Shown: one piece after another, positions 29,649 through 54,969 of the stretch
How the letters are laid out: each line of letters starts with the position of its first letter
Position numbering within the stretch: position 1 is the stretch's first letter
Assembly: GCA_963707955.1 (NCBI GenBank)
Contig: OY970176.1
Location: forward strand, 1,979,013-2,043,012
Source of the DNA: Candidatus Bathyarchaeota archaeon
GTDB lineage: Archaea; Thermoproteota; Bathyarchaeia; Bathyarchaeales; Bathycorpusculaceae
Direction: 5' to 3'
DNA length: 64,000 bases
Notes under the pieces: generated by a model
Databases searched by the model: none
The model's input: only the letters and a program-made list of their open reading frames with translations
Told to the model about the DNA's origin: nothing
Translations under genes and position numbers: made by a program

Positions 29649-29871
29649 AAATGAGAAAATGGAGATGATGCTTTGTTTCAAGTATTGATAGTGTTGCCTG
29701 ATTTTTGCAAAGGAACGACGAGGCAAGCGGGTCATATAACTTAACAGTACCAAGGTCTGGAAAGGTTTATTTCGTTGCCTGGTGCTATGATTCAAAATCA
29801 ATGGCGGATGAGACGTCCGCTGGGATGTGGCCGAAAGGCTGAACCGCAAACTAGAGATTAAGGTGAAGCGA

Positions 29872-36963: not shown

Positions 36964-37064
36964 TGGGCCCGCCCGGACTCGAACCGGGGATCTTCGCCGC
37001 TTCCTCAGGCGCGTGCTAATCAGCCTTGTGAGGGCGACGTCCTACCAAACTAGACTACGAGCCC
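36964..37064 (-). tRNA. tRNA-Val(CAC): tRNA-Val (anticodon CAC) with ~27-nt intron 3' of the anticodon
   Basis: Hand-folded: GGGCTCG/CGGGCCC acceptor, D arm GTCT..GGAC, anticodon stem TCGCC/GGCGA with loop CTCACA+intron, T arm CCCGG TTCGAGT CCGGG. No encoded CCA. Confidence 0.85.
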
Positions 37065-37527: not shown

Positions 37528-37633
37528 GCCGAGGTAGCTCAGCCTGGGAGAGCGCTCGTCTCGTTGTCTCTCAACAGCGAGGGCGAAGCTGAAGACCGAG
37601 TCGTCGCCGGTTCAAACCCGGCCCTCGGCACCA
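37528..37633 (+). tRNA. tRNA-Phe(GAA): tRNA-Phe (anticodon GAA) with a 29-nt non-canonical intron inside the anticodon stem; CCA encoded
   Basis: Removing 37559-37587 gives GCCGAGG TA GCTC AGCCTGGGA GAGC G CTCGG CTGAAGA CCGAG TCGTC GCCGG TTCAAAC CCGGC CCTCGGC A CCA (74 nt + CCA). Confidence 0.8.
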
Positions 37634-41526: not shown

Positions 41527-44391
41527 TTACGGGTAATGTTGGCCGAAGTGGCGTAGGGCGGTAACTACGTCTCCCATGTCTACTCTGCCGTTGTCGTCTA
41601 TGTCGCAGTTGGCATTGTACCTTGCCATTCCAGTCGTTGACCCGAATGCCGTGAGTATGAGCGTTACGTCTCCCTTGTCAACCTTAAAGTTTCCGTCAAC
41701 GTCGCCTGGAATGGTTACGATCGCATTGCCGCCCGTGCAATTGTTGTTCGCAGTGTTTGTTTCGTTTTGAACGGGCCATGCGTAAGCGCTTATGGTGTAG
41801 TTGCCATAAGCAAAGCCAGCAGTGTTCCAGGTGAAGGTGATGAGGGTGGACGTTGCGCTGAGCAAACTAGTGACGGTTATATTTCCAATTGGGGCTGTGT
41901 TGGCGTAGAGCGTTACGTTAAACGTTTCTGGCCAGTTTCCTAGGTTTGTAGCGGTCACTGTCAGGTTTTGGGAGTAGCCTTGGCCGATGATGGCTTTATA
42001 AGACGACACTTCGGTGACAGCAACGTCGTGATATGGAGAGGTTGTGAGGCTGATTGTGAAGTTGGCTGCAGCGCCTATCCGGTCGCTGTAATCATAGGCT
42101 TGATAGTTCCCAAAAGCGGTGACCGAGCCTGAAATCATGGCTTCAGCTGTTATGCTGACCGTTCCGGTCACGGACGAGTTTGCTATCAATGTCCAAGTTA
42201 CGGTTTGACTGTTTCCAGCTTCCATGAAACCTGTGCCTAAGGTCTTGGTTTGGTCTTCGCCAGGAGCAAGAATTAGCCCAGAAGGCAACGTTATCGATGC
42301 ATTGCAAGATGAAGCTGGATAAGTTGACACAGCGCCTGGTAGAGGTTGTGGATAAGTAATCGTCGACTGCACTTGGAACGGCGTTCCGGGCGAAACACCA
42401 GTCGGTGCGGAGAAAGTCACGTTCCAAGGAGAGACATAGAGAGCCCAGTAGTCATCATACGACCAAAGGTCCATGAATTTGCTGATGTTGAAAGCAGTAA
42501 CTGGGCCACCGTAATTGCTTCCCCATAACGCCTTGTTCCACGGGTCCTGCATAAAAATATTAGTCTGATTGTAGCCTATTGCAACGCGAAAATGGCCATT
42601 AACGTGGCTGCTGGTAAACCACATGCACAGTATAAGCGGTTTCCCCTGTTCAAGAAGACTTTCAAGAACCGTCAAGTTCATGCCATATGTTTCGAAGGCC
42701 GAACACCCTAAAGGCTGCGAAGTGTACCCTGTAATGTTGTAGGGAAGTTGATTACCCGTCGACGTGCTCGAATTGCTGAACTGCGCTGCCCTCCTCAAGT
42801 CATCGTCAGCAGTTCCGTCGTATGAAGGAAAGCCGATGGTTCTCGCGGCGGATGCTATTTCAGACTGCGATATGCTCCTGCCGTAGTAACTGAAGACCAT
42901 TTGAAGACAGGCTGGACCGCAATAGTAGTCTTTTTCTTGAAAGCTGAAAGGAACCGGAAGAATAGTCTCACCTGAAGCCACATAGTGAGCAGTGTAAACT
43001 CCGCCGGATGACACCGTTATCGTCGTAGTCCTTTCACCATCTTCCCAATCCAGAAACGCATTATTGTTCGCATCTGCGGTCGTCACGGTAAAAGTGTGAG
43101 TGCCCGTTAGCCCTGTCGCCGTGTAAGGAGTCCCATAGCCGGTTGGCAACCCGTCCATCGTAATCGGCACGTTAACATCCGCGTTCTCAGAGTAGTCGTG
43201 AGCACAAATGACGACACTGTACACGTAAGTTTGAGACGAACCGAAACAATACACGTTGTCATCCTGCGAGCCCACGTACAGCATCCCCTCAGCAACAGCT
43301 GGGGAAGAATACACTGCCCCACCCGTCGTGTAGCTCCACACCAAAGTCCCCGTCGACCCGTTCAAACAATACACGTTGCCGTCGTCCGAACCAACATAAA
43401 CCATCCCTCCTGCAACAGCAGGAGAGCAATCCATCTCGCCTCCTGTCATGTAGCTCCACACAGGCATGCCAGACGCACCGTTCAAACAGCAAACTCCATC
43501 CTCTAATCCAAGGTAAACGTCGCCGCCAGCGACAGCCGGAGAAGACAGAGCCAAGCCTGATGTGTATTTCCATACAAGCATCCCAGTTGAAGCGTTCAAA
43601 CAATAAACATTGTTATCATATGAACTCACGTAGACAGCGTCGTTGGCAACAGCTGGAGAAGAAAACACCCAGGCACCAGTCGTGTAGTTCCACACCGATG
43701 CGCCTGTTGTGGCGTTCAAGGCGTAGAAGTTGTTGTCATCTGAGCCTACGTAGACAACGCCACCGGCAACAGCTGGGGAAGAATACACTGCCCCACCCGT
43801 TATGTAGCTCCACACCAAAGTCCCCGTAGACGCGTTCAAGCAGTAAAAATCATTATCGCACGACCCCACGTAGACAGCGTCGTTGGCAACAGCAGGAGAA
43901 GACTCCACCTGCCCGCCAGTCGTGTAGTTCCACACCGATGCGCCTGTTGTGGCGTTCAAGGCGTAGACTTTGTCGTCGCCTGAGCCCACGTAGACAACGC
44001 CACCGGCAACAGCTGGGGAAGAATACACTGCCCCACCTGTTATGTAGCTCCACACCAAAGTCCCCGTCGACCCGTTCAAGCAATACACGTTGCCGTCGTC
44101 CGAACCAACATAAACCATCCCGCCTACAACAGCAGGAGAAGAAAGCACATAATTTCCCGTAGCGTAGCTCCATGCCGTATGGTTTGTTGTCGGTGCTGAC
44201 GTTGAATACCCACTGTGGTTCAGGTCATGGTGAAACATCGGCCACCAGTCTACGACGTCTGCAGTGGACTGTGCCACAGTGGTTCCAGAGCTACCATGGG
44301 ACTCGGTTGCTCCGATGAAAGTGCTCGTGGATAATACCGATATGAAAAACAGCATGACTAGGACGAAACACACAATCGCTTCTCTTTTCAT
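41527..44391 (-). CDS. secreted multidomain protein: PQQ-like beta-propeller repeats, C39-like papain-fold domain, CARDB-like domain, C-terminal dockerin
   Basis: Signal peptide. More than 8 repeats of ~40 aa (LVWSYxTGGAVYSSPAVAGGVVYVGSDDxNVYCLN). YYCGPACLQMVFSYYG block. CARDB-like HDVAVTEV...NLTVTATNLG. Dockerin GDVDGNFKVDKGDV...CDIDDNGRVDMGDV. Confidence 0.8.
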   Translation of the reverse strand: MKREAIVCFVLVMLFFISVLSTSTFIGATESHGSSGTTVAQSTADVVDWWPMFHHDLNHSGYSTSAPTTNHTAWSYATGNYVLSSPAVVGGMVYVGSDDGNVYCLNGSTGTLVWSYITGGAVYSSPAVAGGVVYVGSGDDKVYALNATTGASVWNYTTGGQVESSPAVANDAVYVGSCDNDFYCLNASTGTLVWSYITGGAVYSSPAVAGGVVYVGSDDNNFYALNATTGASVWNYTTGAWVFSSPAVANDAVYVSSYDNNVYCLNASTGMLVWKYTSGLALSSPAVAGGDVYLGLEDGVCCLNGASGMPVWSYMTGGEMDCSPAVAGGMVYVGSDDGNVYCLNGSTGTLVWSYTTGGAVYSSPAVAEGMLYVGSQDDNVYCFGSSQTYVYSVVICAHDYSENADVNVPITMDGLPTGYGTPYTATGLTGTHTFTVTTADANNNAFLDWEDGERTTTITVSSGGVYTAHYVASGETILPVPFSFQEKDYYCGPACLQMVFSYYGRSISQSEIASAARTIGFPSYDGTADDDLRRAAQFSNSSTSTGNQLPYNITGYTSQPLGCSAFETYGMNLTVLESLLEQGKPLILCMWFTSSHVNGHFRVAIGYNQTNIFMQDPWNKALWGSNYGGPVTAFNISKFMDLWSYDDYWALYVSPWNVTFSAPTGVSPGTPFQVQSTITYPQPLPGAVSTYPASSCNASITLPSGLILAPGEDQTKTLGTGFMEAGNSQTVTWTLIANSSVTGTVSITAEAMISGSVTAFGNYQAYDYSDRIGAAANFTISLTTSPYHDVAVTEVSSYKAIIGQGYSQNLTVTATNLGNWPETFNVTLYANTAPIGNITVTSLLSATSTLITFTWNTAGFAYGNYTISAYAWPVQNETNTANNNCTGGNAIVTIPGDVDGNFKVDKGDVTLILTAFGSTTGMARYNANCDIDDNGRVDMGDVVTALRHFGQHYP

Positions 44392-46211: not shown

Positions 46212-47561
46212 TCACGCCTCCGAGCCTAGGTTCTGATGCCGTTTTCGGCTCATCCTCGCTTCCACGGTCTCCTTGGACACTATCTCAACAAGCTTGGCCT
46301 GCTTTCCCTCAACCTTTCTGAGCAGTCTTCCAAGCCTTTGAACGTACTCTCGTGTGCTTCCCGTTCCGCTGAGGATGAAGTCCACCGAAGCATCCGGAAC
46401 GTCCACGCCCTCGTCGAGAACCTGAGAGGTAACTATCACCCTGTAACTTCCGTTTCTGAAGTTTTCCATGATTTCGCGGCGCTCCTGCTTCGGTGTTTGA
46501 TAAGTCACGGCGGGTATCAGGAACCTGCGGCTTATCCTGTATACCAGGTCATTGTGCAGCGTGAAGATCAGTGTTCTTTCACTCTCGTGTGCTTCAAGCT
46601 GCTTGGCAAGCAGGTCCAGCTTTGCCTCGGAGTTCAACGCTACTCTCACCGCGCGGTTTCTGGCCAGAAGAGCCTCTCGCGCCTGCTTGTCCCTTCCAGT
46701 GGTCATTATGAACCTCTGAAAGTCCTCAGCGCTCCTCAGAACGATCCCCCTCTCCCTCAGATAACCGTTGAAAACGCTCATCTCGCCGTCGTAGACCTGC
46801 TGCTCCTCAGGAGTCAGCTCAACGTAAACCTTCTCGTAGGTGTACGGCGAAAGATGTTTTCCCGCCAACTCTTCGACGCCTACAGTATAGACGAGGTCGC
46901 CGACAAGGGCTGGAAGAAGCGAGTGCCTTTGGTCGCTTCTCTCGTACGTAGCCGTCAGACCCATACGGTAAGGCGCAATGTACATCTCAGCGATCTGCAT
47001 GTAACCCGGCGAAGCCAGATGGTGAACCTCATCGAACACCATGAACATGAACCTGTTGCCCAGCACGTCTGCCTGCAGATAAGCTGAGTCGTACGTGGAC
47101 ACGGTCAGCATTCTCACCGTGGATTCGCCGCCGCCCACGGTTCCCGCCTCCACGCCGAAGCATTCTTGCACTCTTCTTTTCCACTGATCTATCAGGTCTA
47201 ATGTTGGAACAACGACCAGAGTCTGCGTCTTCAAAAGACTAATCGCCTTCAACGCGATAAACGTCTTTCCAGCAGCGGTCGGAAGCACCAGGATTCCCCG
47301 TTTGCCAGCCCGCCGCCATCTGACCAAAGCCTCGCTCTGGTAAGGACGCAGCTCAACCCCGCCATGCAGAGTCTCGACGGGAGGAAGGTTCGGAACGCTG
47401 TCCCGAAACTGAAGCATGCTCTCCTTCAAATAGGACAGCACGTCGCGGTAATGCGAGGCCTTGACCCTGTAACAGCCTACCCTAGGGTCCCACTTTCCGT
47501 AAGGAGTCCCAACGTCCCCCCGCAGCAGAAGAGTGCCCCTGTCAAACCAAAGATCGATCAT
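46212..47561 (-). CDS. xpb: XPB/Rad25-type SF2 DNA helicase
   Basis: N-terminal damage-recognition-like domain, VLPTAAGKTFIA (motif I), FDEVHH (motif II), helicase C-terminal motifs. Confidence 0.85.
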   Translation of the reverse strand: MIDLWFDRGTLLLRGDVGTPYGKWDPRVGCYRVKASHYRDVLSYLKESMLQFRDSVPNLPPVETLHGGVELRPYQSEALVRWRRAGKRGILVLPTAAGKTFIALKAISLLKTQTLVVVPTLDLIDQWKRRVQECFGVEAGTVGGGESTVRMLTVSTYDSAYLQADVLGNRFMFMVFDEVHHLASPGYMQIAEMYIAPYRMGLTATYERSDQRHSLLPALVGDLVYTVGVEELAGKHLSPYTYEKVYVELTPEEQQVYDGEMSVFNGYLRERGIVLRSAEDFQRFIMTTGRDKQAREALLARNRAVRVALNSEAKLDLLAKQLEAHESERTLIFTLHNDLVYRISRRFLIPAVTYQTPKQERREIMENFRNGSYRVIVTSQVLDEGVDVPDASVDFILSGTGSTREYVQRLGRLLRKVEGKQAKLVEIVSKETVEARMSRKRHQNLGSEA

Positions 47562-47614
47562 GCATCAACAACGACCCTATTCACGAATCGACTTGAAAAC
47601 CCTTTTGCCAACGC

Positions 47615-47976
47615 ATGCCATTGAAAGTTAAGCTTGAACCGTACTTAGGATTTCTTCATTATGTTCAGGTTGGCAAGCCTAGTTTAGTGCGTGATTTTCA
47701 GGAACTCTACCGCTACTTGATAGATGACTATCTGATTGAACGGTGTCAGAAATTGCTTAAGAAGGATTTTGTAGCGCGCGCGTGCGAATTTAAGACTAAT
47801 GATTTAGCTGAAGGTTTGAATTTGCTTTTTGACCGATTTGTCGAGGTTCTCAGGAATCAGGCATGGCAGTAGGCAAACCATTGACACGTTGATTAATGAA
47901 TAGGCCTATTTGCTTGCTAAGTTTCTGAGGCGTGAACGGGAAACATGGGTTCCAAGAATACTGAGCCTAGACTGAT
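47615..47976 (+). pseudogene. cas1: Cas1 (or casposase) C-terminal remnant
   Basis: LEPYLGFLHYVQVGKPSLVRDFQELYRYLIDDYLIER matches the Cas1 GFLH...SL..D..E.(F/Y)R core. After a frame change near 47870 and an in-frame TAG (47902), it continues IDTLINE*AYLLAKFLRRERETW. The N-terminal half is absent. Confidence 0.65.
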
Positions 47977-48089
47977 AGAAAGCGGAGATATCTCCCGAAG
48001 ACCCTACTTTTGGTAGGATTTCGGATTGACATATCATATCGCCAAAAGAACAAAGTGAGGACAGACACTTAAAAAGAATATGTCGAAAG

Positions 48090-48112
48090 GGTACTGGTGC
48101 GTTAAGGGACAT
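48090..48112. repeat. left terminal inverted repeat GGTACTGGTGCGTTAAGGGACAT
   Basis: Reverse complement of 51161-51183 except at positions 2-3. Confidence 0.85.
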
Positions 48113-48173
48113 AACGATGGCTCATTAAACATAGATATATCTCAAAAGCATCGTATAGTAGTGGAGCATTGCA

Positions 48174-49331
48174 ATGAGTCTCCAAAGAATAAAAGATTCC
48201 CAAACAACATTAACTCTGATTGTTGCCACAGTTTTGTTTGCTCCAGCCGAGGTTGTTCTGTTTTATGCGGGAATACTTGTATCAACAAACTGGTCGACTA
48301 TGAATGGTCAAACAACTCAGATATTTGTGCTAAGAGACTATGGAGTTTGGTATCTGGCAGGTTGGTCAATTTTGCCAATTCTCTATTGTATAATTGCATC
48401 TCTCTATTTCTCACCAAAAAGAATTGTTTCGCCCTTAAATACGCAGATTTTTGCTTGGTTAATACTGTCTGTAGTCGAGTTTCTACACGAATACGACACG
48501 CTTTATTCGTATTACAATTACTACACTCACACACCTCCACCAGTTGCCCAAATAAACACAATGATTTCAACATGGGCTTCCAATTCGTTTGCTTTATTCT
48601 TCATCTTTGTTTTTGCTGGTCTCGGTCAACTGCTTATGGTTCGATTGATGGTGGGTCCTAATTTGATTGGTGTATGGCGAAAAACGTACGCTGTTAATGC
48701 AAAATGCGAGGTTCTTGATAGCGTTCTTTGTGAATTAGAAGATTACAGAAGACACGAAGAGGATGACGGTCTTATCGTTTATAAAATGCCTACAGGATTT
48801 GTTGATAAGGTTCTTATGGTTCTTGGTCCTGATCCGAGAAACAAGGATCATTCCCTTCTTGCAACTGTAGCTTACCATTCTGGAGTTTACTCCTATGAAC
48901 AAAGCGATGAATCAGCAGTTAAGAGAAATAGAACAATCTTTGAAATAGAGGGTAGATTACGGCATGCAGATTCTCCCGCCACTATAGAAGAGTTGAAAGA
49001 AGAATTGTATGATCCTGCAACAGCAAGAGCGTATGATTTAGCAATTAAGCCAACTCGGACACCGTTCAAAAGAATGGAAAAACTTGTTTCTCAAATTCCA
49101 CCCTTCTACAAATGGTTCATGGCTATAACATCCGTTCTAATTGTGCTGGTTCAGGTAGCTTATTTCACATCCTACTTCCATATTGATACGAATACATGGA
49201 TAAGCACAACTGTGCTTTTGCTCTTTGCCTTTTTTGCAGAAGCAGCGATACCTTTGAGGGATGAGATTCAAGCTCGATTGAAAGAACGATTAAGAAAAGA
49301 AGCGAGTGCTGATAAAGAGGGCAAGCCTTAA
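48174..49331 (+). CDS. transposon cargo: membrane protein (4 N-terminal and 2 C-terminal TM helices around a soluble domain), unknown function
   Basis: 385-aa ORF inside the element. Confidence 0.65.
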   Translation: MSLQRIKDSQTTLTLIVATVLFAPAEVVLFYAGILVSTNWSTMNGQTTQIFVLRDYGVWYLAGWSILPILYCIIASLYFSPKRIVSPLNTQIFAWLILSVVEFLHEYDTLYSYYNYYTHTPPPVAQINTMISTWASNSFALFFIFVFAGLGQLLMVRLMVGPNLIGVWRKTYAVNAKCEVLDSVLCELEDYRRHEEDDGLIVYKMPTGFVDKVLMVLGPDPRNKDHSLLATVAYHSGVYSYEQSDESAVKRNRTIFEIEGRLRHADSPATIEELKEELYDPATARAYDLAIKPTRTPFKRMEKLVSQIPPFYKWFMAITSVLIVLVQVAYFTSYFHIDTNTWISTTVLLLFAFFAEAAIPLRDEIQARLKERLRKEASADKEGKP

Positions 49332-49354
49332 ATACTAAATATGGCTTATAGGAT

Positions 49355-50260
49355 ATGTATAGGAGCGTAATAGGAATGAAATGCAAATACTGCGACTCCG
49401 AGAAAGTCGTGAAGGCTGGTATGAAGGGCAATAAGCAGAGATACCTCTGCAACGATTGTGGTCACAAGTTTGTTGAAGGTTCAGATTTTCCGAGAATGAG
49501 AACCGAGGCACGCATCATATCTTCTAGCATTGACTTTTATTTTGAAGGATTAAGCACTAGAAAGATTCAGACTCAGATTGAGAAACTCTATGGCGTTCAT
49601 GTTGACCATTCAACAGTGTTAAGGTGGATCTTGAAATACTCTAACCTAGTCTCTCAGTATGTCGAAACACTAACGCCTCAGTTGCTAGGTATCTATCACG
49701 TTGACGAAACAGTGATTAAGTGTAAGGGTGTTCAAAAGTGGTTCTGGGAAATTATTGACGACCAGACTAAATTCCTAGTTGCTGGTCACTTGTCAGGTTC
49801 AAGAACAGCCGAAGATGCAATCACTCTTTTTGAGAAAAGCATCAGAGTAGCTAAGAAGAAACCAACTTCAATTTACTGTGATGGGTTGCCTTCTTACGTG
49901 GATGGTTACAACAAGGTTTTCAGAACCATGCGAAAGGACACAAGACCAGAGTTGATAAGGAAAGTTGGCATCAGAGCAGTTCATAATCAGAACGTAGTCG
50001 AAAGATTACACAGTACTTTGAAGGATAGGATAAAACCAACCAGAGGCTTGAAAGGAGAAAACACTGTTAGAACTTTGCTCGAAGGATGGGTTGTCCACTA
50101 CAACTATGTGCGAAAGCATCAGACTTTGAAGATGACTCCTGCACAAGCTTCTGGTCTAAACGTGAAGAATGACTGGTACACTTTGGTTAAGGATGCAACG
50201 AAGAATGAGACGAAGAAAGAGGAAAAGCAAGTTCCGCAAATTGAGGTGACTGTAAAATGA
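49355..50260 (+). CDS. DDE transposase with N-terminal zinc finger (IS6-like; IS1-like not excluded)
   Basis: CKYCDS...QRYLCNDCGHKF zinc finger. DDE candidates: HVDET, IYCDGLPSY, NVVERLHSTLKDR (E plus K at +7). Confidence 0.85.
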   Translation: MYRSVIGMKCKYCDSEKVVKAGMKGNKQRYLCNDCGHKFVEGSDFPRMRTEARIISSSIDFYFEGLSTRKIQTQIEKLYGVHVDHSTVLRWILKYSNLVSQYVETLTPQLLGIYHVDETVIKCKGVQKWFWEIIDDQTKFLVAGHLSGSRTAEDAITLFEKSIRVAKKKPTSIYCDGLPSYVDGYNKVFRTMRKDTRPELIRKVGIRAVHNQNVVERLHSTLKDRIKPTRGLKGENTVRTLLEGWVVHYNYVRKHQTLKMTPAQASGLNVKNDWYTLVKDATKNETKKEEKQVPQIEVTVK

Positions 50261-50412
50261 AGAAGATTCTTGTTAGCCTTCCAGAAGGTATATTCAAGAT
50301 TGTCAAAGAATTGAAAGGACAGCTTGGAGACAGCGATTCTGAGGTTGTTCGCACTATGGTGATAAGTTTCCTCAGTGAGAAAGGATACTTGGCTAAGAGG
50401 GAGAATGAATGA
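50257..50412 (+). CDS. ribbon-helix-helix (CopG/Arc-like) protein, 51 aa
   Basis: Below the ORF-track cutoff. ATGA overlap with the transposase stop. MKKILVSLPEGIFKIVKELKGQLGDSDSEVVRTMVISFL. Confidence 0.6.
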   Translation: MKKILVSLPEGIFKIVKELKGQLGDSDSEVVRTMVISFLSEKGYLAKRENE

Positions 50413-50603
50413 GTAAACGCAAGAAAGACCGCATTAAAGAACTGGCTTTGGAACTTGATATAGTTGATCACATGATTGCTGCGTTGGTGGATGTTTTAGA
50501 AAAGAAGGGTATTTTGACCTCTGCAGAATGGGAAAAAGAGGTAAAGTTGAAGGTTGAAAAAGCAGCAAAGACAACGCAAAGTTTCAGGGAGATAGAATCT
50601 TAG
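50409..50603 (+). CDS. small helical protein (64 aa), unknown function
   Basis: ATGA overlap with the RHH gene stop. Confidence 0.5.
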   Translation: MSKRKKDRIKELALELDIVDHMIAALVDVLEKKGILTSAEWEKEVKLKVEKAAKTTQSFREIES

Positions 50604-50604
50604 A

Positions 50605-51111
50605 TTGCAAACCAAAAGCCACGACAGTTTGCATGAAACAATAGTAGCGAAAACTTTGCCTAGATTTGTTGAAAGGCTAAAGAAAGAAAGGCTTGTCTCT
50701 GATTACAATAGAGACAGTTTCCATGTTGAAATAAAGCATTTCAATGAAACTCATATGTTCAACATAAAACCCGATTTGGTTTTAGTTTTACCTGACAAAG
50801 CGAAGTTTCTAATCGAGGTAGTCAACCCCAGAGACCCGAAAAGATTACTAGGCGAGATTGTCTATCTTCAAATTCTTGGTTCTCGAAGGCTCATTGATAA
50901 TGGAATAATCTTCCTACTCCCACTAGGGTCTGAACACCCAACAGCACCCATGAAAGGTTTGAGACTTTCATTCACATCACTCGCTACTGGTCTGGAGCAA
51001 ATCGTTTCTACAAAGATTCCGTGTGATATAGCCTCATGGTCAACGACTGAGGAAAACAACTACGTCAATTTGAGAGGCTCTATTATATATCGTCCTAAGT
51101 TGCACTTATAG
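50605..51111 (+). CDS. hypothetical protein, weak PD-(D/E)xK-nuclease-like pattern
   Basis: HETIV...KPDLVLVLPDKAKFLIEVVNPRD. TTG start 1 nt after the previous stop. Confidence 0.5.
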   Translation: MQTKSHDSLHETIVAKTLPRFVERLKKERLVSDYNRDSFHVEIKHFNETHMFNIKPDLVLVLPDKAKFLIEVVNPRDPKRLLGEIVYLQILGSRRLIDNGIIFLLPLGSEHPTAPMKGLRLSFTSLATGLEQIVSTKIPCDIASWSTTEENNYVNLRGSIIYRPKLHL

Positions 51112-51160
51112 GAGAAGTTTGCATGAGCGAACAAAAAACGAATCCACCTAATATTCTCCC

Positions 51161-51183
51161 ATGTCCCTTAACGCACCAGTTTC
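51161..51183. repeat. right terminal inverted repeat ATGTCCCTTAACGCACCAGTTTC
   Basis: Pairs with 48090-48112. It creates the artefactual twin MSLNAPV ORFs in the track. Confidence 0.85.
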
Positions 51184-51357
51184 TGTCGAAAGCGTAGAAC
51201 ATGGAAACGGTAAAATCAACTGGTCAAACTGGCTTAAAAAACATATTACTAGACTGTCCAAGAGGAGAATACACTTTATCCAAACTACATCTTGGAACGG
51301 TTTGCAAGTTGAAGTCGAGTTAATAAACGGGCTCCTCAGAATAGTCAATAGACACTC

Positions 51358-52185
51358 ATGACCAATCTGATTTCAGTTTCTAGTGCACCTATCGCTGGGT
51401 TTGGGGACAAGGAATACTACGACCTTCTGGGCACGATTGAAGTGATGAAAAAAGTCTCTGAAGAGGTTGTGGTTGATGGTTTTGAGTTGCAACTTGAACC
51501 AGAATGGGACTGCGAAAATGCACCATTAACCGATGCTGACTGGGCTGATTGGACTAAGACTCCCAAATTTACTTTTGAAGAAGTTGTGGAACTAATCAAA
51601 AGTGAGGGTCTACCAATCCTTTCTGTTCATGCGAGCAGGGATGTCGGAAGTTATCTCTGCTCTGAGAAGGAAAGAGATTGGGAGAAGGGAAAGCGTGTCA
51701 TTTATGGTGCATTGTCAGTTGCTGAAGGATTGGGAGCGGAGGTTTGTGTATTTCATCTTTGGGACACTTGGAAAAGCAGTTTCGATTTGCGAAATGTCGA
51801 GAACATTTTTCTGAAGACAGCGGAACAGTTTCCAAAGGTTAAAGCTTCGGTTGAAAATATCCCAACACATCTAGAAGGTTATTCTCCGTTCATGTTGGTT
51901 GGGTCTGCCAATTATGTGACTTTAGACTTGAGATGGGCAACTATGTATAAGGAGCTTGACGCTTTCGAGTCGATAATTAACGGTATTGTGAATGTTCATC
52001 TGCGAGGGAGTCTGAAGGAGAGTAAATGGGTTCTAGAGCGTTCAGACTTTGATTTCTATGAAGCCTTGAACAAAATAAGAAAGGAATGGAAATATTCAGG
52101 ATTGCTCACAGTCGAGCCTGAAGGTAGAATAGACGGGTCATTGTTTGAAAGCTTCCTAGAAGCGATGCACACCTTGAAGACGTAG
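51358..52185 (+). CDS. xylose isomerase-like TIM-barrel protein (sugar phosphate isomerase/epimerase family)
   Basis: Pattern LSVHA...VCVFHLW...ASVENIP...VHLRG...TVEPEG, typical of the AP_endonuc_2 fold. Confidence 0.65.
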   Translation: MTNLISVSSAPIAGFGDKEYYDLLGTIEVMKKVSEEVVVDGFELQLEPEWDCENAPLTDADWADWTKTPKFTFEEVVELIKSEGLPILSVHASRDVGSYLCSEKERDWEKGKRVIYGALSVAEGLGAEVCVFHLWDTWKSSFDLRNVENIFLKTAEQFPKVKASVENIPTHLEGYSPFMLVGSANYVTLDLRWATMYKELDAFESIINGIVNVHLRGSLKESKWVLERSDFDFYEALNKIRKEWKYSGLLTVEPEGRIDGSLFESFLEAMHTLKT

Positions 52186-52200
52186 ATTCCTATTTGTTCA

Positions 52201-52230
52201 GCTATAACTTTTCCGCAAAACCAAAAACTG
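52201..52230. repeat. intergenic module copy A (GCTATAACTTTTCCGCAAAACCAAAAACTG)
   Basis: Starts 8 nt beyond the GNAT-1 stop (minus strand). Confidence 0.8.
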
Positions 52231-52237
52231 GCTTTCT

Positions 52238-52809: not shown

Positions 52810-52839
52810 GCTATAACTTTTCCGCAAAACCAAAAACTG
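52810..52839. repeat. intergenic module copy B
   Basis: Identical 30-mer between the two GNAT genes. Confidence 0.8.
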
Positions 52840-52846
52840 ATTATCT

Positions 52847-53383: not shown

Positions 53384-53418
53384 ACCTGACCACCAATCTA
53401 GGTGTTTAAGTCGGTTCA

Positions 53419-53440
53419 GCTATAACTTTTCCGCAAAACC
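53419..53440. repeat. intergenic module copy C (first 22 nt conserved)
   Basis: GCTATAACTTTTCCGCAAAACC, then divergent. Confidence 0.75.
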
Positions 53441-53893: not shown

Positions 53894-53949
53894 GACATCT
53901 CGCCGTCTAGGTTCTTTGCGTTGTTCTTATTTGAAGTATCTGAAATTTG

Positions 53950-53979
53950 GCTATGACTTTTCTGCAAAACCAAAAACTG
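53950..53979. repeat. intergenic module copy D (2 mismatches)
   Basis: GCTATGACTTTTCTGCAAAACCAAAAACTG. Confidence 0.75.
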
Positions 53980-54729: not shown

Positions 54730-54829
54730 ACAAATAAAAGTGTGTGTGTTATGTGTGTTTGTTGTGTGTGAAGAGAGACTAAGTAAGTATAGTAGAGTGA
54801 GTTAGGGAGTCGTAGTAGTAGAGCAAGGG
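54730..54829 (-). ncRNA. candidate G-depleted small RNA, copy 2
   Basis: Promoter-like GGGGTAAAGTTTTATC (54851-54866). 3 G on the minus strand across 54741-54850. Shares a TCTCTCTT...ACACAAACA CA-repeat layout with copy 1. T-rich end at 54728-54742. Confidence 0.3.
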
Positions 54830-54969
54830 TTTTGGTGTTTTGGGTTTTGGGATAAAACTTTACCCCCCAAACCCAAACCCAAAAAAAACACACAAAACCC
54901 ATGTGAGAAATGCAGAACTGTTATAACAAGAAAAAAATAGGGAGTAGATAGTATGGTTCGAGTAGCGGG

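Follow-up and report, generated by a model that had tools for sequence, protein, structure and literature searches.

An IS6/IS1-like archaeal transposon with a conserved three-gene core and variable cargo in a Bathyarchaeia genome

The stretch of DNA analyzed here (referred to as the window) comprises 64,000 nucleotides of contig OY970176.1 (positions 1,979,013 to 2,043,012, forward strand) of the Candidatus Bathyarchaeota archaeon assembly GCA_963707955.1, and it contains an intact transposon of ~3.1 kb from a Bathyarchaeia genome. The element spans 3,094 bp (48090-51183 in window coordinates, which are used throughout). Its left terminal inverted repeat (IR; 48090-48112, plus strand), GGTACTGGTGCGTTAAGGGACAT, is identical at 21 of 23 positions to the right IR (51161-51183, minus strand), whose reverse complement is GAAACTGGTGCGTTAAGGGACAT, the two mismatches being positions 2 and 3 of the right end. 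The relatives described below are bounded by this IR or by one closely related to it. The 20-nt perfect core of the IRs is found at exactly two sites in the window, in inverted orientation, where none is expected by chance even if three mismatches are allowed. Directly outside the IRs lie two identical copies of the 9-bp target-site duplication TGTCGAAAG (48081-48089 and 51184-51192), which is present nowhere else in the window. As a 9-mer occurred twice per window in 24 of 100 shuffles, such a pair is not rare by itself; the weight of this evidence lies in the abutment of the 9-mer on both IRs, not in its double occurrence. Five open reading frames (ORFs) of 385, 294 or 301, 51, 64 and 168 amino acids (aa) lie within the ends, all on the plus strand. 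From left to right, the element consists of the left IR, a left bay with the gene of a 385-aa orphan membrane protein (48174-49331; from the ORF listing and transmembrane prediction), a putative transposase promoter and operator with three hexamers (49327-49375), the transposase gene (49376-50260; 294 aa, with zinc ribbon, helix-turn-helix (HTH) and DDE domains assigned by profile matches and alignment), the gene of a 51-aa ribbon-helix-helix (RHH)-like protein (50257-50412), the gene of a 64-aa helical SHOCT/FeoC-like protein (p64; 50409-50603), a right bay with the gene of a 168-aa orphan protein (50605-51111) and the right IR. The start codons of the second and third core genes overlap the preceding stop codons as ATGA, both at the transposase/51-aa and at the 51-aa/64-aa junction. 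An upstream ATG at 49355 would extend the transposase by 7 aa to 301 aa; this codon is not conserved.

Investigations on the target confirmed the insertion. The empty site was rebuilt by removing the element and one of the two 9-mers, which gave the 25-mer AAGAATATGTCGAAAGCGTAGAACA, and a metagenome collection was scanned with it. The exact 25-mer, containing a single TGTCGAAAG, was found in 29 metagenome contigs, and the base after the left 9-mer copy as well as the base before the right copy proved to belong to the element and not to the target. Therefore, the duplication is exactly 9 bp rather than part of a longer duplicated flank, and the whole 3,094 bp entered in one piece. The interrupted target is a dispersed conserved intergenic sequence, the left half of which lies at 47991-48089 (its last 9 bp being the left duplication copy) and the right half at 51184-51240, both read on the plus strand. 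In the contigs L030, L031, L034 and L045, ~100 nt running from tctcccgaagaccc to cttaaaAAGAATATGTCGAAAG precede the uninterrupted site in otherwise unrelated contexts. These loci were considered as orthologous empty sites and rejected, since they have only the ~100 nt of left flank in common and are all different farther out. They represent additional copies of the dispersed sequence and still show the uninterrupted target. A scan for further IR-like sites inside the element, carried out on the identical sequence of the L001 assembly, detected none at up to 7 mismatches in 23 positions, so that the element has no internal ends. The original prediction had proposed a single transposon with 23-bp IRs, a 9-bp target duplication and additional genes between one pair of ends, against which internal IRs or a longer duplicated flank would have spoken, and had pointed to a site with a single TGTCGAAAG as a check; the uninterrupted targets, together with 24 further elements of the same design, bear this proposal out. 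Its description of the insertion as recent and intact holds with regard to intactness, and recency is plausible in view of the whole ORFs and the identical duplication copies; the copy is fixed at this site in the three assemblies in which it is present.

A search with the transposase yielded 505 relatives at E <= 1e-5, the top 120 of which are all at least 75% identical. Twenty-five elements, including that of the window, were delimited by their IRs in representative genomes and metagenome contigs. They reside in Bathyarchaeia and, more distantly (46-53% identity), in Methanolobus, Methanoperedens and Methanobacterium. Their lengths range from 2,147 to 6,861 bp, their ends read G(G/A)T(A/T)CTG, and each contains at least four genes. 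Identical 9-bp duplications flank 23 of the 25 (a further one, L007, can be read as 8 or 9 bp, and one element has no duplication), indicating that the 9-bp stagger is a property of the lineage. The family IR pattern gave no match in viral contigs. Nucleotide identity between the window element and its relatives amounts to 82-87% only over 49319-50611, from the transposase to p64, and is abruptly lost on both sides, which defines a left and a right cargo bay. At first sight, this restriction of the similarity to a core of ~1.3 kb is what would be seen if a small insertion sequence (IS) had come to lie, by chance or by nesting, between unrelated genes with fortuitous outer repeats. Such a composite origin is effectively refuted by the absence of IR-like sequence flanking the core at up to 7/23 mismatches, by the conservation of the outer IRs in 25 elements with the duplication beyond them, and by the uninterrupted target, into which the 3,094 bp were inserted as one piece. 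Moreover, a search for other copies with or without cargo, as suggested at the outset, turned up the 24 further cargo-bearing elements but no cargo-free copy among the 25, and even the two shortest complete elements, of 2,147 and 2,224 bp, retain a gene in the left bay.

Clustering of the ORFs of the first 20 elements (16 from Bathyarchaeia and 4 from methanogens) revealed that the transposase and p64 are present in all 20. In each of them p64 is adjoined by a small DNA-binding protein, which is RHH-like in 16/16 Bathyarchaeia elements and AbrB/MazE-like, at the same size, in 4/4 methanogen elements. As the transposase, the DNA-binding partner and p64 occur together in 20/20 elements, two of the genes previously reported as passengers are core genes. 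Thus, of the four or five passengers of the original prediction, the 385-aa and 168-aa genes stand as cargo and are the only true cargo of the window element, but the 51-aa and 64-aa genes are core partners. The 51-aa protein has a beta-alpha-alpha pattern as read from its sequence. The short, acidic and helical p64 has the conserved core L-D-x-M-x3-L-V-x2-L-x-E-K-G-I-L-T-x-E-E-W-E; no relative of it was found in the PDB, and no toxin family was matched in Pfam, PADLOC or the PDB. Upstream of the transposase, a TATA-like CTTAAATA (49327-49334) is followed by three ATAGGA hexamers (49348, 49359 and 49370) with 11-bp spacing, ending at the conserved ATG at 49376. This layout is kept in the Bathyarchaeia relatives, and in L009, L010 and L016 all hexamers change jointly to ATAAGC. 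Arc, an RHH protein, has been shown to repress the promoters of IS605-family transposons (bioRxiv 10.64898/2026.09.24.754181). By analogy, the hexamers are patterned as would be expected for the operator of an RHH-type repressor, and autorepression by the RHH-like protein, with p64 as a putative oligomerizing partner, is favored.

In the main rival interpretation of this pair, the RHH-like or AbrB protein would make up, with p64, an addiction or toxin-antitoxin system by which the transposon is stabilized in the genome, rather than a regulator of transposition. The two genes do form a module with overlapping stop and start codons, in which p64 is constant and the DNA-binding partner varies between the RHH-like and AbrB/MazE-like types; domain swapping of this sort is typical of type II antitoxins. 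A type II module pairs a recognizable toxin family with a DNA-binding antitoxin, and the partner of p64 agrees with the latter. One methanogen partner carries the JGI label "antitoxin component of MazEF". In the Methanobacterium elements the small-protein pair lies upstream on the opposite strand, which marks it as a separable module and resembles the behavior of an independent one. Nevertheless, the addiction interpretation is considered improbable. p64, a short acidic helical protein of SHOCT/FeoC-like type, resembles no known toxin, and the RHH and AbrB proteins, at only 50-57 aa, are DNA-binding domains without a toxin-neutralizing tail. PADLOC returned no toxin-antitoxin model match for either protein, and the linkage of the pair to the transposase in 20/20 clustered elements fits a transposition-specific role, as assumed under autorepression.

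The cargo of the relatives is diverse. It includes a DNA methylase (N6_N4_Mtase) fused to an Mrr_cat nuclease domain, type I HsdM and HsdS with an AAA_14/DUF4143 ATPase, nucleases of the PIN (twice), NYN and HNH types, a DUF2326 protein with CTD10 (ABC-3C set) and a subtilase (Peptidase_S8). Left-bay genes on the transposase strand almost always encode predicted membrane proteins. In the window element, the 385-aa protein is predicted to contain ~4 N-terminal transmembrane helices, a soluble middle part and 2 C-terminal transmembrane helices, and it has no match in Pfam, NCBIfam or PADLOC. Its family consists of only 7 clusters among 5.8 billion proteins. Homologs at the loci fetched occupy the same bay of related elements and are 22-47% identical to it, though the transposases of these elements are 89-95% identical. 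An AlphaFold model of the 385-aa protein was too poor for fold reading (predicted local distance difference test (pLDDT) 58, predicted template modeling score (pTM) 0.36). The 168-aa protein forms only 5 clusters; one homolog lies alone beside type I restriction-modification (R-M) genes in L059, and another lies inside the related element of L060. Its AlphaFold model (pTM 0.75) is an alpha/beta sandwich with conserved D57 and E71. A Foldseek search of the PDB gave nothing below E 6e-3, and PD-(D/E)xK nucleases were mixed with Ras GTPases among the results, so that the model offers a hint only of a nuclease-like protein with a possible PD-(D/E)xK-like fold. A defense role of the window cargo may be supposed from the company that it keeps in the family.

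Most duplications differ between elements, and their distribution is non-random. In the window and in L017, different members of the family occupy the same 9 bp of copies of the dispersed repeat, in opposite orientations; the L017 element measures 4,376 bp, carries other cargo and has a transposase 89% identical to that of the window. Likewise, the orthologous loci L005 and L061, with flanks 90% and 65-72% identical, are occupied by two different members, which share the insertion position and point in opposite directions. The latter two elements have different IR subtypes, and their duplications, TGTTGAAAG and CTTTGAAAG, differ, which identifies them as independent events. These two pairs of different members on the same 9 bp in opposite orientations imply a target preference. 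In L060 (4790-4844), a right IR is followed by the 9-bp duplication CTACCAGCC and then, with no spacer, by the left IR of a second, different member, which suggests either repeated use of one 9-mer or insertion beside a resident copy. Duplications starting with CTTT or ending with AAAG make up 8/22, compared with 1.3% of flank 9-mers, and 6/20 agree with TGTTGAAAG in at least 7 of the 9 positions, compared with a background of 0.5%. The family prefers 9-mers of the form CTTTNNNNN, the best being TGTYGAAAG on the other strand.

The transposase combines signals of two IS families. The zinc-finger cysteines C3, C6, C25 and C28, the catalytic residues D111, D169 and E210, and K217, located seven residues after the catalytic glutamate (E+7), are invariant among 18 aligned full-length family members, as are the motifs CxxC...CxxC, DET, DG and ER.H..LK. 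The NCBIfam IS6 model NF033587 scores 134.8 bits against a cut-off of 125 over profile positions 1-201 of 202, and Pfam DDE_Tnp_IS240 matches at E 5.9e-20 (score 72.3, cut-off 27). This DDE profile match above threshold, the lysine at E+7 and IRs with an initial GG and G at position 7 (G7) are IS6 features. On the other hand, the NCBIfam zinc-binding domain of IS1/IS1595 (NF050000) reaches 42 bits against a cut-off of 28 at residues 3-34. The original prediction had described the transposase as IS6-like, with an IS1-like zinc finger and 9-bp duplication, and both sides of this description are supported by the profile scores and by an IR motif common with IS1A. The left IR starts with GGTACTGGTG, with G1, G2 and G7 and also G10, and relatives start with GG or GA and always contain G7; ends of this kind fit both the GG/G7/G10 rule for bacterial IS6 and the GGnnnTG rule for IS1. 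GGT..TGCT..AACTTA..CTG is common to the family IRs and Escherichia coli IS1A, as seen when the family IR GGTACTGCTAACTTATCTGTCAT is compared with the IS1A ends GGTGATGCTGCCAACTTACTGAT and GGTAATGACTCCAACTTATTGAT. In a plasmid collection, the top annotated relative is a zinc-finger IS6 transposase of Clostridium botulinum (27.5% identity over 90% of the protein, finger included), and IS26-type transposases were also matched. Judged from these signals, the transposase appears to lie between the IS6 and IS1 families and to represent an archaeal lineage.

Whether the lineage would be better filed under IS1 than under IS6 was also considered. IS1 elements are recognized by GGnnnTG ends and an 8-9-bp duplication, 9 bp being typical, and the classical IS1 transposase is produced by programmed frameshift between two ORFs. 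The GGTACTG ends and the 9-bp duplication of the window element agree with this description, the 9-bp duplications recur in the family, and the IRs resemble the IS1A ends. In addition, the zinc ribbon passes the IS1/IS1595 N-terminal model, and the IS1 whole-protein model NF033558 matches residues 3-187 at 3e-19. This model, however, yields 69.7 bits, under its cut-off of 100, whereas the IS6 model exceeds its own cut-off over the whole length. BLASTP comparisons with E. coli InsA and InsB are marginal (E 0.005 and 0.1), the transposase is a single uninterrupted 294-aa ORF with no frameshift, and NCBI gives all relatives, including the RefSeq proteins of Methanobacterium and Methanolobus tindarius, the generic name "IS6 family transposase". 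An IS1 filing is a possible but rather doubtful alternative to the placement between the two families.

With its anatomy, 9-bp duplication, family-wide core, variable cargo, target reuse and one-piece insertion, the whole is in all likelihood best explained as an IS6/IS1-like archaeal unit transposon with a conserved core, swapped cargo and a target preference. In the mechanism proposed, the zinc-ribbon/HTH/DDE transposase would bind the G(G/A)TACTG... ends, which would be cut and joined to the target with a 9-bp stagger, and repair would leave the 9-bp duplication. Transposition would most likely be replicative ("copy-in") via a cointegrate resolved by host recombination, as suggested by homology to IS6 and IS1. 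The three core genes are translationally coupled through the ATGA overlaps, and the RHH-like protein and its 64-aa, putatively oligomerizing partner would most likely bind the hexamers and repress the operon, which would keep transposition rare. The bays take up and exchange passenger genes, often defense or nuclease genes.

Several observations weigh against parts of this explanation. With regard to transposition, no cointegrate-like structures were seen, the 23 insertions being clean and simple, and copy-in is proposed from homology; for a route via cointegrates or the targeted conservative reaction of IS26 type, the abutting pair of elements in L060 is suggestive at most. The target motif was chosen after inspection of the very data in which its enrichment was counted, so that the enrichment values are indicative only. 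For regulation, the 51-aa protein matches Pfam RHH_1 weakly (E 0.071), a PDB profile search with the RHH alignment gave only spurious leucine-rich-repeat matches to an LxSLPxGxF motif, the best p64 member matches SHOCT at 9.7e-5 and FeoC at 5.8e-4, both below the family thresholds, and the hexamers overlap a possible Shine-Dalgarno region. With regard to defense, most cargo proteins of the family are without annotation, and the cargo of the window element gave no PADLOC defense match. As for mobility, the three assemblies in which the window copy is present all have it at one site, relatives are single-site across up to 23 contigs, and position 3 of the right end is A instead of T, the only such case among the 25 elements. 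These last points, together with the single copy in the window and the position of the insertion ahead of a gene, in intergenic sequence that is conserved and promoter-like, are compatible with an immobile relic, or with an element being domesticated and kept for its cargo or promoter effects. This interpretation of the window copy is regarded as unlikely, although it retains some credence, since the five ORFs are intact, all catalytic and zinc residues are present, the duplication copies are identical and the IRs agree at 21/23 positions. Moreover, relatives with 85-95% identical transposases occur at many different sites with perfect duplications, which indicates that the lineage has moved recently. 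Occurrence in multiple copies was also considered as evidence of activity and set aside. The relative P0038 is present on 23 contigs, but the places with an upstream flank have one left flank across samples; its right flank differs in one contig (L064). P0004 and P0005 are alleles of one locus.

Additional observations were made on the ends of the element and on its target. Internally, both IRs end in ...GGGACAT, which places an outward-facing ATG at each end. The resulting ORFs (47906-48112, minus strand, 68 aa; 51161-51361, plus strand, 66 aa) start with MSLNAPV and run into the flanks; they are probably not genes. IS6 elements are known to drive neighboring genes from their ends. The target sequence (47991-48089 and 51184-51240 in the window; L030-L058) reads (GGTCAAA)ACTGGCTYAWA-AAGAATATGTCGAAAGCGTAGAACA-GAAAAAC, with ~75 additional conserved nt on the left in one subfamily. 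It is present once, rarely twice, per contig in the 29 metagenome contigs and in at least 5 different contexts; its usual place is immediately behind the 3' end of a gene on the minus strand or ahead of a gene on the plus strand. Rfam gave no match to it at E <= 1 or at gathering thresholds. A CRISPR repeat, brought to mind by a Cas1 fragment 200 nt away and by the GAAAG at the end of the duplication, was rejected as its identity, the 25-mer occurring once per contig and not in arrays; no CRISPR array was found in the window. An integron attC-like site is likewise unsupported, as neither strand forms a significant hairpin and no R'/R'' boxes were discerned by eye. The target repeat may be a promoter, a protein-binding site or the end of a mobile element. 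To the right of the element, a repeat of ~32 nt, CAGCTATAACTTTTCCGCAAAACCAAAAACTG, recurs at 52200-52232, 52810-52842, 53412-53440 and 53944-53975 behind the 3' ends of four consecutive minus-strand genes, namely two GNAT acetyltransferases that are paralogs, a 146-aa ORF and the next spacer. This region looks like a cassette-style array, in which small genes are parted by a common boundary sequence, and in L040 and L044 CAGCTATAACTTTTCCGCAAAACCAAAAACTG is joined directly to the target repeat. A long imperfect hairpin is formed in the intergenic DNA at 54820-54900, where a stretch rich in G and T precedes its own complement (GGGTTTTGGTGTTTTGGGTTTTGGG ... CCCCCCAAACCCAAACCCAAA); the metagenome contigs L038 and L043 contain a closely similar CCCAAACCCAAACCC tract in the neighborhood of the target repeat.

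Further features of the window are located to the left of the transposon. An 85-aa ORF (47615-47872, plus strand) corresponds to the C-terminal part of Cas1 only (PF01867, 1.2e-8, profile positions 209-262 of 283); no other cas genes or CRISPR array were seen near it, and it is probably a remnant. At ~47.5 kb the G+C content falls from ~0.54 to 0.40, and it remains low as far as ~55 kb. The L001 assembly is 99.9% identical to the window rightwards from 47604 and unrelated leftwards, which marks the region ~47560-47604, ~480 bp from the transposon, as a strain-level rearrangement point or an island boundary. Tandem repeats of 120/240 nt (3.6-7.5 copies, 65-72% matches) occupy 43247-44143 within a minus-strand gene for a 954-aa protein that contains PQQ/beta-propeller repeats, a C39-like peptidase domain and a CARDB domain. 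Two tRNA genes (36964-37064, minus strand; 37528-37630, plus strand) were detected by Rfam and not by ARAGORN, and their lengths of 101-103 nt suggest introns. At 29804-29850 (plus strand), a match to the euryarchaeal leader of ribosomal protein eL15 occurs in this Bathyarchaeia genome.

The components of the element are of known kinds: an IS6-type DDE transposase, cargo carriage of the transporter insertion sequence (tIS) type and an RHH accessory protein. Their combination, namely an archaeal zinc-finger IS6/IS1 hybrid with a three-gene core, two bays, a 9-bp duplication and a target preference, was not found in the IS6 reviews and literature searched, and the lineage is apparently an undescribed archaeal group of IS6-like transposons. 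IS6 elements are usually seen as minimal one-gene IS that move cargo only as pairs, such as IS26 with antibiotic resistance genes. This lineage differs in that one IS6-like transposase, always accompanied by two small partners, carries genes between its own ends. DNA transposons with cargo have hardly been described from archaea, and a 2019 survey stated that none had been detected there (PMC6563490). A more far-reaching proposal, to which slightly less than even confidence is given, is that of an uncatalogued archaeal family bridging IS1 and IS6, in which the obligatory core would comprise the transposase, an exchangeable small DNA-binding protein and a SHOCT-like partner that autoregulates or directs transposition, two bays would shuttle R-M, nuclease and membrane-effector genes between Bathyarchaeia and methanogens, and insertion would prefer CTTTN5/TGTYGAAAG sites in promoter-like intergenic repeats. 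If this proposal is true, the family would be one of the earliest well-defined groups of archaeal DDE unit transposons with cargo. As the readable cargo is mostly R-M and nuclease genes, these elements may spread defense genes among Bathyarchaeia and methanogens of peat and wetland soils. The mixture of IS1 and IS6 hallmarks bears on the kinship of both families. Testable points are the 9- versus 8-bp stagger, the probable built-in repressor with a readable operator and the repeated targeting of the same 9 bp, and relatives in the cultured strains Methanolobus tindarius DSM 2278 and Methanobacterium sp. MBAC-LM make experiments feasible.

Among the known systems, IS1A and the IS1/IS1595 group have the zinc ribbon, the GGnnnTG ends, the TGCT...AACTTA...CTG motifs and the 9-bp duplication in common with this lineage. 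IS1 differs in its size of 768 bp, its InsA-InsB frameshift and its lack of cargo, and the catalytic domain found here agrees far better with the IS6 model. An archaeal IS1 subgroup in ISfinder, "ISMhu11", reportedly has members of up to ~4.6 kb and may overlap with the lineage; in that event, part of what is unusual by IS6 standards (the 9-bp duplication, the zinc finger and the passenger genes) would be ordinary family traits. Tn3 transposons have a ~1,000-aa DDE transposase, a resolvase with a res site, ~38-bp IRs and a 5-bp duplication, and the window element, with its 294-aa transposase, 23-bp IRs, 9-bp duplication and no recombinase, does not fit them. Nor is it a pseudo-compound transposon of the IS26 type, as it has a single transposase gene and a single inverted pair of ends, and no further copy is present in the window. 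The Arc system of the IS605 family also places a small RHH-type protein, which binds and represses the promoter, within the transposon beside the mobility genes; it differs in belonging to the HUH TnpA/TnpB superfamily and in having no p64 partner, and repression in the present lineage is proposed by analogy to it.

IS6 elements normally measure 0.7-0.9 kb, exceptionally up to 1.76 kb, with a single gene and an 8-bp duplication (PMC7986276, PMC6807381), and their short IRs start with GG and have G at position 7 (PMC6807381). The window element departs from these norms with a duplication of 9 instead of 8 bp and a length of 3,094 bp with five genes instead of a compact single-gene design. IS6 clade h/clade VII, exemplified by ISCbo1 of Clostridium botulinum, has the same IS240-type DDE domain with K at E+7, a CxxC finger followed by an HTH, and short IRs starting with GG and containing G7 (PMC7986276, PMC6807381). 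Members of this clade are bacterial, 1.2-1.35 kb long, with one ORF and 8-bp duplications, and are less than 30% identical to the present lineage, which is archaeal and has lengths of 2.1-6.9 kb, a three-gene core plus cargo, and 9-bp duplications. The archaeal IS6 elements of the ISPfu1/2/5, ISH and ISC types have archaeal hosts, an IS6-type DDE domain and many GA/GG ends, and ISPfu5 is listed with a 9-bp duplication, as in this lineage (PMC6807381). They differ in being 0.7-0.85 kb single-gene elements without a zinc finger (PMC6807381), and none is reported with accessory genes or cargo. Another known system is the tIS ISDsp3, which also has a passenger within one pair of ends next to an IS6-family transposase, no other IS6 member being reported to contain a passenger; it is a single copy of 1,456 bp with one hypothetical passenger and an 8-bp duplication (PMC7986276, PMC6807381). 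The window element is a unit transposon of this tIS type, as the IRs enclose the genes of the 385-aa and 168-aa proteins and the whole is absent from uninterrupted targets. In contrast to ISDsp3, carriage in this lineage is lineage-wide, with two bays, up to ~5 kb of cargo and conserved accessory genes.

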